Below, piece after piece: positions 27,307 to 44,913 of a stretch of 64,000 nucleotides of DNA (within the stretch, counting starts at the first letter, position 1; each line of letters starts with the position of its first letter). Position numbers and translations under genes: made by a program. This DNA is from Pseudomonadales bacterium (lineage in GTDB: Bacteria > Pseudomonadota > Gammaproteobacteria > Pseudomonadales > JAUIET01), in contig JBBKXJ010000257.1 of assembly GCA_037969395.1 (NCBI GenBank), positions 10,405 to 74,404 on the forward strand. Direction: 5' to 3'. The notes under the pieces are model-generated. The model saw nothing but the letters and a program-made list of their open reading frames with translations, did not search any database and was not told the origin of the DNA.

Positions 27307-28872
27307 TTGTCCTGTTATTTTACCCAACGCATTAGCGAACTCGGCAGCGTCGAAAACCGGGCGACGTTGCGCACGCTGCAGCGCGGCATCGAAAGAGAAG
27401 GCCTGCGCGTGCAGCCGAATGGCGATATTGCGCTAACGCCACACCCGCAGGCACTTGGCGCTGCGCTCACTCATCCGCACATCACGACCGATTTCTCCGA
27501 AGCGCTATTGGAATTTATTACGCCGGTGTGCACCAGCGTCGACGAACTGCTGCGCTGGACCACAGAAATCCATCAGTTTGCATACCAGCATCTTGGCGAT
27601 GAGTTGCTGTGGGCCAGCAGCATGCCCTGCGTGCTGCCGAACGATGCCGATATTCCGGTCGCGCAATTTGGCACGTCAAATATCGCTACGATGAAAACGG
27701 TGTACCGTCTTGGCCTGGGCTATCGCTACGGTCGGGCCATGCAAACCATCGCCGGCATTCATTACAATATTTCGTTTACCGATCCGTTTTGGCAGCGTTA
27801 CCAAACCCTGCTAAAAGATGCTACTCCGCTGCAGGATTTTAAAACCAGTCAGTACCTGCATCTGATCCGAAATTTTCGTCGTTATTCATGGCTACTTATT
27901 TATTTGTTCGGCGCGTCACCGGCAGTGTGCAAATCTTTTTTGCGGGATCGTCCGCACGCGCTGCAGGCGTTTGATAAATCCAGCCTGTACGAGCCGAACG
28001 GTACATCGCTGCGGATGGGCGATTTGGGCTACCAAAGTAACGCCCAGGAAAGTCTTTATGTTTGTTATAACAGCCTGGAAGAGTATGCCCGCACACTGAG
28101 CAAGGCGTTGACAACGCCGCACGCTGACTATGCCGCGCTAGGTACGCATAAAGATGGCAAGCGCATTCAGCTGAACACCAACCTGTTACAAATCGAAAAT
28201 GAATTTTATAGCAGCATTCGACCCAAGCGCGTCACGCACTCGGGCGAGAAGCCACTGTCTGCCCTGCTGGACCGAGGGATAGAATACGTCGAGGTGCGCT
28301 GCCTGGACGCCAACCCCTACCTGCCGCTGGGTATTGATGAAGACGAGATTCGCTTCATCGATGCGTTTATGCTGTTTTGCCTGCTGGAAAACAGCGCACC
28401 GATTGACGTTAAAGAATACGAAGACATCATGGCCACCAGCAAAAATGTTGTTAACAACGGTCGCGCAGCGGATGCCCAGGTCAAGCTTGATGGTCTTTCC
28501 ATGCCGTTGAGCGAGGCGGCGCATAAATTGCTCGCCAACGTAAAGCAGTGCGCCACAGTTCTCGATGGCGCTAGTGATACCAACAAGTTTTCAAGCGCCT
28601 GGGCGCAACAACTTGGCAAGCTTAATAATCCTGATAGCTTGCCGTCAGCACGAATATTGCAGGATATGCGCGACCAGGAGCTGACGTACTACCGTTTCGC
28701 GATGCAGTTAACTCAAGCGCATAAACATGTTTTTGCCGAGCATGAACTGGATCCTGAGCGTACCGCCTATTTTGAGCAGCAAGCGCGCGCTTCAATCGCA
28801 GAACGTGAACGTATCGAACAGCATGACGAGATTTCGTTTGAAGATTTCATGGCGCATTACGACGCCCAATAG
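27307..28872 (+). CDS. gshA: glutamate--cysteine ligase
   Basis: 521 aa. The N-terminus (LQRGIEREGLRV) and overall length match GshA. TTG start, as in E. coli gshA. Confidence 0.93.
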   Translation: MSCYFTQRISELGSVENRATLRTLQRGIEREGLRVQPNGDIALTPHPQALGAALTHPHITTDFSEALLEFITPVCTSVDELLRWTTEIHQFAYQHLGDELLWASSMPCVLPNDADIPVAQFGTSNIATMKTVYRLGLGYRYGRAMQTIAGIHYNISFTDPFWQRYQTLLKDATPLQDFKTSQYLHLIRNFRRYSWLLIYLFGASPAVCKSFLRDRPHALQAFDKSSLYEPNGTSLRMGDLGYQSNAQESLYVCYNSLEEYARTLSKALTTPHADYAALGTHKDGKRIQLNTNLLQIENEFYSSIRPKRVTHSGEKPLSALLDRGIEYVEVRCLDANPYLPLGIDEDEIRFIDAFMLFCLLENSAPIDVKEYEDIMATSKNVVNNGRAADAQVKLDGLSMPLSEAAHKLLANVKQCATVLDGASDTNKFSSAWAQQLGKLNNPDSLPSARILQDMRDQELTYYRFAMQLTQAHKHVFAEHELDPERTAYFEQQARASIAERERIEQHDEISFEDFMAHYDAQ

Positions 28873-29832: not shown

Positions 29833-29973
29833 CGTAAACTCCTTTGAAATGGCTCATCTTTCCCCAAAGCATAGTCGATTCATATAGCTGTAGTTGATTC
29901 ATAGCGCTGCACTTGTTTCACTGCGAGCTTTCGCCTAATGTAATGTGTTATTTGAATTTAGCGTAACTCCACC

Positions 29974-41215: not shown

Positions 41216-42861
41216 ACCTCCTCAGCCGCGTTGGCTGCTTCGTCCTGGGTGCTTGCTTCAGGTTCGTCGGTTGCGGGTTCTTTCCCGGGCTTCGCTTCTG
41301 AGTCAGGTGTTTTTGCCGGTTGTTGTTTTGAGTTAGCTTCGACTTGTGACTTTTCTGCTTTGTCTTTCTCGTCTTTCCCGCCCTTCGCGTTTGACTCCTG
41401 ATCTTGCTTTGACTCCTGATCTTGCTTTGACTCGGGCTCTTGCTTTGACTCGGGCTCTTGCTTCGCCTCGGGCTGTTGTTTCGGCGCAGGCTCCGCCTTC
41501 AAGTTCGCTGTTTGCTCGGCTTCCGGTTGTGTCGGTGACGCGGCTTTTACTTCTGCCTGCGGCTTATTCTTCTGCAGCACTTGCTGTGCCGCTTCAGCTT
41601 TTATTTTTCTGCTGTACTCGCTGTCGGTATATTCTTTCAAAGCGCGATAGGAACCGCTAATGTCAGGTAGTGGCGGGTCAATATTAGTCTTACGCGCGGC
41701 TTCCAACGTCTCCAGCGCCGCCTGGGTAGCGGCATCTTCGCTGATGAAGTAGCGCGCGATCCACTGCTGTGCTTTATCGAGGCTCTGTTGATAGATATCA
41801 GGCTTTTGTGCCAGTAGCGCCAGCTGAGCCTGCTCCAGCATCAGCCGCAGATTTTGCCGCAGGTATAACTCCTGTTGCGGCGGCAGCATGGCTTCGACCG
41901 GCTGGTCGCGCTGTCGCACCACGAATACCTTACCAAGCGTCTGCTTGATCGCACCACCGACCCGCGTAACGCTGTCGCGCCAGGTTGGTTGTTCGGGCAT
42001 GGTCGCCTCTACAGACTCTTCCTGTTCATCGTTGCTGAATTCGGGAATATCGTGCAGTTTCAGTTCATCGATGCCGCCGGTCAAGCTGGCCAGGCTCAAA
42101 TATTCGCCGTCTACGTCAACCGATTCGGTGCGGCTCAACGCGGCAATATCGTCGGCAATCGCTCGCCGCACGTGAACCAGGCTAACGTCGTCAATCTCGC
42201 GTAAAATCTTATCCGCCGATTGCAGCATGGCAAGCGGGCCGCTGATTTCCTTGCTCATCAGAATACGTTGGTTCGCCAGCCGCAGCAGATATTCAGTTTC
42301 GGCCATTAACCATTCGTCACGATTGGTCTGGGTAAGCGCCTCCATTTGCCGGGTTTGCCTGCCCACAGTTTTTTCTAGCAGCTTTAGTGTATTTTGCGTC
42401 GCCGTCAATTCTCCCTCGCGAGTGATTGACTCCTCGCCAAGCTCAGCCTGTAACGTATTAAAGTCGTCTCGCAAATCATTGCGTACGTCATCACGCACAT
42501 TAGCAATCGCATTTTGCGTTTCCTGCAGCTTACTCTTAAGCGCCAGCTTGCTGCCTTGCTCCATTTGCCACTGCTGCCACAGGTAGTACACGCCGTAACC
42601 TGCAGCTCCGCTAAGCCCGAGCGTGCACAGTAGAAAAAACCAAAGCAAGCCCGTGCGCGGTCCTTTTTTTTGCGCATTAACTGCGTTGCTGTCGCCGTAG
42701 TCGGCCTGGTCTGATTTTTTTTGATCTTCTTTTTGGGCACTGACGTAAGCTTTCGCCCTGGCAGCCCTTTCGGTGCTGCTGACGTTTCGCTGTTGTGATT
42801 TTTGTTCGGATTTTGACGCGGCGTCGTTAGGTTTATCGCCGAGCTTTTTGCTGTCTACCAT
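41212..42861 (-). CDS. hemX: HemX-like protein (annotated in databases as uroporphyrinogen-III C-methyltransferase-like)
   Basis: 549 aa. Charged N-terminus, one TM helix, coiled-coil region, and a repetitive acidic/Lys C-terminus. It sits between hemD and hemY, with 4-bp and 7-bp overlaps with its neighbours. Confidence 0.8.
   Translation of the reverse strand: MVDSKKLGDKPNDAASKSEQKSQQRNVSSTERAARAKAYVSAQKEDQKKSDQADYGDSNAVNAQKKGPRTGLLWFFLLCTLGLSGAAGYGVYYLWQQWQMEQGSKLALKSKLQETQNAIANVRDDVRNDLRDDFNTLQAELGEESITREGELTATQNTLKLLEKTVGRQTRQMEALTQTNRDEWLMAETEYLLRLANQRILMSKEISGPLAMLQSADKILREIDDVSLVHVRRAIADDIAALSRTESVDVDGEYLSLASLTGGIDELKLHDIPEFSNDEQEESVEATMPEQPTWRDSVTRVGGAIKQTLGKVFVVRQRDQPVEAMLPPQQELYLRQNLRLMLEQAQLALLAQKPDIYQQSLDKAQQWIARYFISEDAATQAALETLEAARKTNIDPPLPDISGSYRALKEYTDSEYSRKIKAEAAQQVLQKNKPQAEVKAASPTQPEAEQTANLKAEPAPKQQPEAKQEPESKQEPESKQDQESKQDQESNAKGGKDEKDKAEKSQVEANSKQQPAKTPDSEAKPGKEPATDEPEASTQDEAANAAEEV
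41391..41480. repeat. 18-bp in-frame tandem repeat x5 inside hemX
   Basis: Units are TTGACTCCTGATCTTGCT x2, TTGACTCGGGCTCTTGCT x2 and TCGCCTCGGGCTGTTGTT. They encode hexapeptide repeats (AKQEPE/SKQEPE x2/SKQDQE x2). Confidence 0.9.
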
Positions 42862-43682: not shown

Positions 43683-44627
43683 CTAGCTCGCTGCCCGCGC
43701 TGCAGCGAGAATTTTATCGCCGCCGGCGGCCAGTATTTCTTCTGCCAGCCCCTCCCCCAGCACGTCGGCTTCAATGGCTGCGCCGCGTCGTTGTCTGATG
43801 ATCATTTGCGCACCGTCGAGGGATACAACCCTTGCCTCCAGGGTAAGCATGTCGCCATCTAACTGCGCAAATGCGGCGATAGGAACCTGACAGCCGCCGT
43901 CAAGGCCGCGGTTCAAGGCACGCTCGGCGCGCACACAATGGCTGGTTTGCAAATGGTTTAATTCGGCGACAAGTTTATTGATCAGCGCATCATCGGCGCG
44001 GGTCTCAATGCCTATCGCGCCCTGCCCCGGCGCCGGCAAACAGATTTTTGGATCGATGATTTCGGCAATTTGATCGTCCATCCGCAGACGCTTCAAGCCG
44101 GCCTCGGCAAGAATGATCGCGTCGTAGGCGCCGTCGTGCAGCTTCTGTAAACGAGTGTTGACGTTACCGCGCAGGTCAAGCATCTTAAGATCGCCGCGCG
44201 CGGCAAGCATTTGGCTGCGGCGACGCAAACTGGACGTGCCAAGTCTTGCGCCTGGCGGTAAGTCGGCAAAGCTGGCGAAGTTGGGCGCAATAAAAGCATC
44301 AAATGGACTGTCACGTTCGCAAATTGCTGCCAGCCGCAAGCCCGGAGGGAAGTGCATTGGTACATCTTTCATCGAGTGAACGGCGATGTCGGCCCGGTGC
44401 TCCAGCATGGCCACTTCCAGTTCTTTGATAAACAGCCCTTTGCCACCGATTTTCGACAACGGTGAGTCAAGCAGTTGATCGCCGCGAGTGGTCATGCGGA
44501 CCAGCTCGACCTGCAATTCGGGATAACGCTGCATGAGTACACTTTTGACGTATTCTGCCTGCCATATAGCCAACTGGCTTTCGCGGGTAGCGATACGCAG
44601 CGGACGATCCATAACCATTACTGTCAT
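43683..44627 (-). CDS. hemC: hydroxymethylbilane synthase (porphobilinogen deaminase)
   Basis: LRIATRESQLAIWQAEYV... matches HemC. There are several clustered candidate starts (TTG 44633, ATG 44627/44618/44612), so the exact start is uncertain. Confidence 0.93.
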   Translation of the reverse strand: MTVMVMDRPLRIATRESQLAIWQAEYVKSVLMQRYPELQVELVRMTTRGDQLLDSPLSKIGGKGLFIKELEVAMLEHRADIAVHSMKDVPMHFPPGLRLAAICERDSPFDAFIAPNFASFADLPPGARLGTSSLRRRSQMLAARGDLKMLDLRGNVNTRLQKLHDGAYDAIILAEAGLKRLRMDDQIAEIIDPKICLPAPGQGAIGIETRADDALINKLVAELNHLQTSHCVRAERALNRGLDGGCQVPIAAFAQLDGDMLTLEARVVSLDGAQMIIRQRRGAAIEADVLGEGLAEEILAAGGDKILAAARAAS

Positions 44628-44657
44628 TCCCAAACGGAAAAGACGAATTATGCCATG

Positions 44658-44885
44658 AGAGCCACTAGCGCAGGAACATAAGAGCCTTCAGCGCAGAAAC
44701 AAGAGAGCCTTTAGCGCAGAAATAAAAAAGCCTTTAGCGCAGAAAAAAAAGAGCCGTTAGTGCAGCAAGATAAGAGCCATCAGCGCAGAACCACAAGAGC
44801 CTGCAGCGCAGGACTAGCGCCATTGGCGTGCGAAAATGAGAGCCCTGAGCGCAACAAATACAAGAACCGCCCACATGTTTACAAG
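44658..44885. repeat. 23-bp tandem repeat array (7 exactly phased units plus 2-3 degenerate units) in the algR-hemC intergenic region
   Basis: Units start at 44658, 44681, 44704, 44727, 44750, 44773 and 44796, with consensus AGAGCCnTnAGCGCAG plus a 7-nt A/purine-rich variable tail. Degenerate copies lie at about 44819, 44839 and 44863. The region is non-coding, with stops in the forward frames I translated and no ORF of 60 aa or more fully within the array in the ORF track. Confidence 0.9.
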
Positions 44886-44913
44886 CGGCTGCATTGTTGA
44901 ATAAGACAGAGAA

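Follow-up and report, generated by a model that had tools for sequence, protein, structure and literature searches.

The strictly phased 23-bp array that fills the spacer between algR and hemC in this Pseudomonadales genome is, in our judgement, likely to be the tandemly amplified 5′ end-module (hereafter, the box) of a family of interspersed non-coding repeats, and not a binding-site array belonging to algR–hemC. The window, that is, the whole stretch of DNA that was analysed, is 64,000 nucleotides long and comes from an assembly (G000) of 5.65 Mb in 428 contigs with a G+C content of 53.7%. The genes are found on the minus strand in the order algZ/fimS-like kinase, algR, spacer, hemC, hemD, and hemX, and the features of the region are as follows, where L021 and L022 are the loci of the two closest relatives.

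46858 to 45764, minus strand: algZ/fimS-like histidine kinase gene (ORF list).
45657 to 44914, minus strand: algR, the upstream gene, a response regulator with a LytTR domain (ORF list; Pfam Response_reg and LytTR on an identical protein).
44865 to 44890, minus strand: terminator-like hairpin and T-run 3′ of algR (terminator scan; comparison with L021 and L022).
44839 to 44854, plus strand: eighth box, AGAGCCCTGAGCGCAA (pattern match with 1 mismatch).
44812 to 44838, plus strand: putative 27-nt remnant, GACTAGCGCCATTGGCGTGCGAAAATG, after unit 7 (weak alignment to the body of a 102-nt element, model positions ~24–50).
44658 to 44818, plus strand: seven phased 23-bp units (TRF, pattern search, nhmmer, and cmsearch).
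44647 to 44655, minus strand: TGGCATAAT motif just upstream of the hemC leader (by-eye alignment with L021 and L022).
44618 or 44633 to 43683, minus strand: hemC, the downstream gene, encoding porphobilinogen deaminase (ORF list).

The start codon of hemC is likely the ATG at 44618, a choice that agrees with the ATGGTT start seen in relatives. Further along, hemX has 18-bp in-frame repeats of its own, (KQEPES)n at 41390–41493, with a unit, GCAAGAGCCCGAGTCAAA, that has AAGAGCC in common with the box.

An initial annotation, made from the letters of the window, had described seven units phased at 23 bp, and both TRF and a pattern search agree with it. TRF places a 23-bp array at 44667–44811 (6.3 copies, 81% matches, score 164). 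Searching the 64-kb window for AGAGCCNTNAGCGCAG with up to 2 mismatches yields eight matches where 0.79 are expected, every one of them in the algR–hemC spacer, and none of 100 shuffled sequences reached eight or more; the starts of seven of these eight are spaced exactly 23 bp apart, from 44658 to 44796. Variation among the units is indeed concentrated outside a near-invariant core, as had also been claimed, with mismatches in 2 of 91 cells at the 13 core positions and in 23 of 70 cells at the 10 other positions (Fisher p = 5.7e-8). Read on the gene-sense strand, the unit is CTGCGCTnnnGGCTCT followed by a T-rich 7-mer; the forward orientation of the box is that of the plus strand, antisense to both algR and hemC.

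Past the seventh unit, the same annotation had two or three degenerate copies extending to about 44885. What we find instead is a 27-nt stretch, one out-of-phase core at 44839–44854, and then the hairpin. The eighth box lies 43 bp from unit 7 and hence falls out of phase. The stretch at 44812–44838 may be what is left of the body of the ~102-nt element described below, given a local nhmmer match of 44795–44840 to HMM positions 3–50 that has an E value of 3e-4 in the spacer alone and is not significant genome-wide. A cmsearch alignment would make 44836–44909 an end-to-end copy with an internal deletion, but the match is weak (14.3 bits, E 0.45), and part of it is more simply the ancestral terminator, since the stem is common to L022. 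Because that stem (AGCCGC/GGGCGGTT) is shared with this relative, the hairpin at 44865–44890 is probably the ancestral algR terminator. It is present in four other samples too, and the hairpins of L315 and L317 show a few loop/stem differences from that of the window (GCCGCCTGTAAACTTGTGGGCGG versus GCCGCTTGTAAACATGTGGGCGG) alongside an identical AlgR protein.

Relatives were found by an AlgR protein scan, with one genome taken per species; it places the organism among uncultured Pseudomonadales, close to Porticoccaceae. In the two closest relatives, L021 and L022 (AlgR 87% and 90% identical, respectively), one finds after the algR stop a GC-rich hairpin and T-run, then GTGGCATAAT(C/T)(C/T)GTCTTTTCCGG, and then the hemC ATGGTT. 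The array is absent from the algR–hemC spacer of both, as it is from that of six relatives with 70% AlgR identity. Both landmarks, the hairpin at 44865–44890 and TGGCATAAT at 44647–44655, are kept in the window, with ~200 bp of repeat DNA between them. Since its closest relatives lack it, the array is most likely not an AlgR or hemC control element, and the examination of this spacer in related genomes, which the initial annotation had itself proposed, counts against a regulatory reading. The suggestion that the array serves as hemC promoter or 5′ leader is not supported either: the spacers of L021 and L022 consist of the terminator hairpin, GTGGCATAAT, and hemC only, and the box is found after pstB too.

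The array abuts the conserved motif directly, with GGCTCTCA running into TGGCATAAT. The latter fits an extended −10 promoter (TGnNATAAT) and may have a promoter role, although a consensus promoter scan returned no −35/−10 pair on either strand. If TGGCATAAT is an extended −10, this would explain why replacement of the −35 region was tolerated.

LytTR regulators bind direct repeats, and known AlgR/LytTR operators include the algD and fimU sites of Pseudomonas aeruginosa. The array is like these in placing direct repeats near the gene of a LytTR regulator. The proposal that it consists of AlgR sites, or of an iteron-like operator, autoregulating algR or driving hemC draws on this established knowledge, on the position beside algR, and on the occurrence of CCGTTAGTG in one unit; we regard it as highly improbable. 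The AlgR 9-mer (CCGTTCGTC / CCGTTTGTC) has no match with up to 1 mismatch in 44658–44885, and in the window as a whole there are 18 such matches versus 13.6 expected. The array is not conserved along with AlgR, being absent from relatives in which the protein is 87–90% identical. Unlike an AlgR operator, the box is also seen after pstB, at more than 20 loci that have no connection with AlgR, and in genomes throughout the order. The earlier idea of a conserved recognition element can thus be kept in part: the core acts as a conserved box that reappears elsewhere in the genome and in further genera, whereas its identification with AlgR/LytTR binding sites is not supported.

The least probable of the readings considered here is a small RNA, either structured or Hfq-binding (ARN-rich), or else a cis-regulatory leader. 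The plus-strand spacers of the array, as read from the sequence, are ARN-like (e.g., AGAAACAAGAGA). Rfam 15, however, gave no relevant match in the algR–hemC spacer at E values up to 10 and none in 11 family loci at E values up to 1, and neither strand of the array folds better than shuffles (MFE z-scores of +0.92 and +1.65), which disposes of the structured-RNA option raised at the outset. The promoter scan found no consensus promoter on either strand, the alignment of the dispersed element holds no covariation beyond shuffles, and the array is absent in relatives.

A search for the core elsewhere in the assembly, as recommended in the initial annotation, was productive, uncovering both further intergenic arrays and a dispersed element of ~102 nt. 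The arrays formed by the core, AGAGCCYTYAGCGCA, include ones with 18- and 20-bp periods.

C204:4183–4350: 20-bp period, eight copies, with the first base one after the pstB stop.
C108:31125–31242: 18-bp period, six copies.
C80:20287–20384: 18-bp period, four to five copies.
C10, C123, and C220: two to three box copies each.

Their orientation relative to transcription is mixed, being sense at C204, C108, and C80, and antisense in the window and at C220. Tracing outward from single box copies, AGAGCCCTCAGCGCAG was found to be the start of the ~102-nt element, which reads TGAGAGCCCTCAGCG-CAGAAATTCTGC-NCCGCTGTCGCG..AAACAGCG..CACGCAGTTTGTAAGCGGG-GCAGAATTTATG-TTTCATAAGAG. There are 22 copies in G000 by nhmmer (E<1e-5) and 21 by a cmsearch covariance model, all of them intergenic and in every orientation relative to the neighbouring genes. 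The 5′ end of the element is the box AGAGCCYTYAGCGCAG plus an A-rich tail, and the window units align to element positions 2–23 (nhmmer); one of these units is read by cmsearch as model positions 1–16 joined to 94–102, that is, as the first 16 nt and the last 9. At C80, C10, C220, and C123 the box arrays are followed by the element body. The number of boxes before this ~80-nt body is 1 at C262, C267, C413, and others, 2–5 at C220, C10, C123, and C80, and 7–8 in the window and at C204, with the caveat that the body match in the window is weak.

Within the element there is an inverted repeat of 16 pairs, with 78% of cells paired as opposed to 35–46% when the partner is slid; it is internal (columns 17–34 with 74–90) and not terminal. 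RNAalifold gave −0.8 kcal/mol and no consensus fold. Because the long stem, although it pairs well, shows no covariation beyond shuffles, we treat it as a sequence-conserved inverted repeat and not as a proven RNA helix. The two ends of the element share a direct ATRAGAG motif, which could be target or element sequence.

Several other repeats in the assembly should be mentioned. A weak match to the 102-nt covariance model (13.2 bits, E 0.81) at 27804–27842 on the minus strand of the window, in an AT-rich spacer before gshA, is probably due to chance. TRF lists 94 tandem arrays with periods of 14–30 bp in G000, and an RGCTCT motif is common to several unrelated arrays (C108:20308, with a 22-bp period; C243:20029; C391:9769; and 29872–29920 of the window). 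A separate class of short arrays duplicates a junction between genes whose stop and start codons overlap (..CAGCC(A/G/T)TGAGC..), as at C158:6941–7019 of G000 and at L009 (G007), L012 (G017), and L013 (G024); those of G017 are 21-bp units that make up a chain of 7-codon mini-ORFs, where each end is the next start (GTGA/TTGA/ATGA).

The covariance model detects 0 copies of the 102-nt element in 60 relatives, two of which belong to the same genus; judged by these sequence comparisons, the full element is species-specific and inserted. Empty sites are seen in closest or same-genus relatives both in the algR–hemC spacer and in the region upstream of iscS, and this pairing of filled and empty sites in close relatives is MITE-like; neither of the two comparisons provided a clear case of target-site duplication. 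Upstream of iscS, G000 and the same-genus genome G001 share the promoter region ATACTTGACTnAnTTACTnGGTTTTTCGTAG. From there to the iscS ATG is 27 nt in G001, whereas G000 has an element in reverse orientation that ends in GAGCGCTGAGGGCTCTC immediately before the ATG. This copy (C352:20133–20231; locus L280, 1501–1601) takes the place of the native iscS 5′ leader, and the 27-nt leader of G001 (L318) is unrelated to it. Directly before the start codon, the box (GAGGGCTCTC, then ATG) is the only Shine–Dalgarno-like sequence, and would appear to supply the ribosome binding site of iscS.

The box is not restricted to this genome. We searched the order with the pattern AGCCYTYAGCG-N5-13-AGCCYTYAGCG, with the same pattern read backwards as a control. 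The pattern is present in 48 of 401 genomes (47 of 400 without G000) and in 36 of 157 genera, while the control gave 0; elsewhere in the class it is present in 3 of 298 genomes, that is, in 1% of genomes versus 12% in the order. A metagenome scan with a rather loose pattern returned many further arrays among the matches listed, mostly from marine samples; a strain variant of the algR–hemC locus was not found among the matches listed.

Because many of the order-wide matches are coding repeats, arrays in coding and non-coding sequence were separated before any conclusions were drawn. The coding arrays are in-frame GAG-CCY-TCA-GCG (Glu-Pro-Ser-Ala, or EPSA) repeats in long ORFs, with periods that are a multiple of three in 27 of 28 cases. 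EPSA-type linker arrays, always with these codons, are found in other genera of the order at L234, L237, L240, L251, L255, and L256. Like their non-coding counterparts, the coding arrays are almost confined to the order, and the same DNA-level core is found in both.

There are at least 44 non-coding arrays, which contain stop codons and have periods of 18–24 bp that are not only multiples of 3: 18 bp (12 arrays), 19 bp (5), 20 bp (4), 21 bp (7), 23 bp (7), and 24 bp (4). Genome G355 possesses ~22 such loci, many of them at contig ends. One of its arrays spans the region from the groES stop codon to groEL, and an array in G336 that from the ntrB stop to ntrC; the stop codons of pstB (C204), groES (G355), and ntrB (G336) are in or at the first unit. 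Two candidate rules were tried and discarded. That arrays always start at a stop codon is true of only 6 (plus 1 divergent start) of the 44 non-coding arrays, many of which have short flanks, and a mini-ORF rule (ATG/GTG/CTG-CGC-TGA on the reverse strand plus a Shine–Dalgarno sequence) does not hold for most arrays in other genomes, which have no start codon at that place. The 102-nt element does not follow the arrays in G355 and G336; what all the arrays have in common is therefore the ~18-nt box unit, the G000 element being a composite of local origin. A literature search by core sequence found chance primer matches only.

Elements of the REP/REPIN type, maintained by a RAYT (Y1) transposase, offer another explanation, in which the array would be a BIME-like cluster. 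Both groups are extragenic, are often located just after stop codons, and have undergone lineage-specific expansion, and the 102-nt element (though not the array) has the ~100-nt size and the inverted repeat expected of REPINs; furthermore, G000 contains eight Y1_Tnp (IS200/RAYT-type) loci. Nevertheless, we think this very unlikely. The amplified 23-bp unit has neither palindrome nor inverted repeat and no GTAG-type head, and no copy of the element is located within ±1.5 kb of any of the eight Y1_Tnp genes. Y1_Tnp is found in 26 of 47 array-positive genomes, no different from the 224 of 401 that form the background, and is missing from the array-richest genomes (G355, G275, G305, G312, G108, and G061). 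Since co-occurrence is only at background and the array-richest genomes have none, the REP/RAYT model is unsupported. Y1_Tnp, the candidate mobilising enzyme tested, showed no association, and no such enzyme was identified. Two of the Y1 loci in G000 (C177:5172–6134 and C93:24715–25683, or L289 and L290) encode paralogous proteins of ~320 aa in which an N-terminal Y1 transposase domain (E ~1e-11) precedes a long C-terminal extension, and their flanks carry neither box nor element.

As the core is conserved within arrays, across loci, and across genera, it is the box on which constraint acts in these repeats; the source of this constraint could be the spreading mechanism, gene conversion, or a cellular function. 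The last of these would make the box the recognition site of a conserved Pseudomonadales protein or RNA-binding factor, with the arrays functioning as ribosome standby or re-initiation sites or as a DNA platform, and with the array in the window tuning hemC. We rate this as unlikely, while acknowledging the points in its favour. The core is conserved over 36 genera while spacers and periods vary, and the arrays are nearly restricted to one order; arrays begin at stop codons within the co-transcribed pairs pstB–phoU-like, groES–groEL, and ntrB–ntrC; the Shine–Dalgarno sequence of iscS comes from a box; and the RNA of the array is less structured than shuffles, as for a landing pad. Against it stand the mixed orientation of the arrays, their 18–24 bp periods, which put sites on different helical faces, and the lack of arrays at the same loci in the closest relatives. 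The array in the window has the terminator upstream of it and the putative hemC −10 downstream, and so may be little transcribed. Moreover, a long upstream ORF ends at the array edge in just the 6 of 44 non-coding arrays mentioned above, though many of these loci have short flanks. Even so, a 13-nt core kept across 36 genera exceeds what is usual for selfish minisatellites, and a cellular function could be underrated by our preferred explanation.

Under that explanation, the amplified box, the history of the locus would have been as follows. One box-bearing copy would have landed in the gap between terminator and promoter, and its first 23 nt would then have been multiplied locally by slipped-strand or unequal recombination; such local multiplication would be the reason for strict phasing within an array and for a different period at each locus. 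Differences between the units would later have built up in the spacer, with the box kept constant either by being recognised by whatever spreads the family, or through gene conversion templated by the ~30 other copies in the genome, or by both. Each strand of the box carries stop codons and Shine–Dalgarno-like purine runs (TAA/TGA-AGAG forward, TGA/TAA-RGG reverse), so that it would be able to lie between the genes of an operon and still leave the downstream gene open to translation. Since both the hemC leader and the putative extended −10 remain intact on the downstream side, the array is most likely passenger DNA that is tolerated and affects spacing modestly at most. Among the options listed in the initial annotation, the fallback of a variable minisatellite or an array for another factor comes nearest to this outcome.

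Contigs from elsewhere also inform on the array. Five public contigs from five samples encode an identical AlgR; one of the samples corresponds to the assembly ERZ21818094, the others to the runs SRR28403182, ERR695597, SRR22508400, and ERR12047048. Four of the five contigs extend into the spacer. These four agree with the window up to the first core beside algR, and all end there, with one going on with different sequence. Because the contigs of four samples match up to this core and then break, the array must be present in natural populations and be a branching point of the assembly graph. Polymorphism in length or sequence at the array is thereby suggested, though not proved; contigs from other samples yielded neither a full-length alternative allele nor two strains that differ in copy number, and an exact-protein look-up of HemC with two start choices retrieved no contigs.

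Among known repeats, the best analogues by organisation would be the pneumococcal BOX elements and the MIRUs. BOX elements have the structure boxA-(boxB)n-boxC, in which the internal 45-nt boxB is amplified in tandem, and are found in one genus (Croucher et al. 2011, PMC3049150). The modular amplification of our box would parallel that of boxB: both families are small, interspersed, non-coding composites in which one short module is tandemly amplified to a variable number, both are spread over numerous intergenic sites, can be transcribed along with neighbouring genes, and can form or alter the ends of genes, and neither is adjoined by a dedicated transposase. The amplified module here is, however, the 5′ terminal 18–24 nt instead of an internal 45-nt boxB, it also forms stand-alone arrays that lack the remainder of the element, and its core extends across ~36 genera and not one. 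As organisms and composition differ, we class the family as working like BOX and not as a member of it.

MIRUs, as far as they are summarised in PMC3184786 (after Supply et al. 1997), are minisatellite-like sequences between operon genes, with units of 40–100 bp that have small ORFs of their own and are proposed in that summary to be harmless in operon junctions. Going by that account, the resemblance lies in the position between operon genes, in ends that overlap the stop or start codons of neighbours, and in absence from the homologous site in related species. Such overlap is found here with the pstB, groES, and ntrB stops and the iscS ATG, but it is not universal: a systematic count puts it at 7 of 44 arrays. 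In contrast to MIRUs so described, our units are 18–24 bp long, non-coding, inserted in either orientation, and unrelated in sequence.

For the locus itself, the result removes a tempting regulatory annotation: the array at algR–hemC is uninformative on AlgR targets or on the control of hemC. For the family, we have a repeat that is absent from Rfam, with a core present in non-coding arrays of about a quarter of the sampled genera and in almost none elsewhere in the class, and the doubling of this core as in-frame coding repeats is an unusual property. A bolder reading, which we put forward tentatively and consider doubtful, is that the 13-nt box AGAGCCYTCAGCG defines an undescribed, Pseudomonadales-specific repeat system, a portable intercistronic module with stop codons and Shine–Dalgarno-like runs on both strands and a non-RAYT spreading machinery, which has colonised pstB–phoU, groES–groEL, ntrB–ntrC, and algR–hemC, sometimes provides the ribosome binding site (iscS), and undergoes in-frame expansion of the EPSA type. 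If this were true, the arrays would be a lineage-wide source of variation in expression and protein length, and not junk. Should the box have no partner, the arrays would still be useful markers for strain typing (VNTR), besides being known to break contigs when marine MAGs are assembled; should it have a dedicated one, it would offer a tractable entry into how short interspersed repeats spread and persist in operons.
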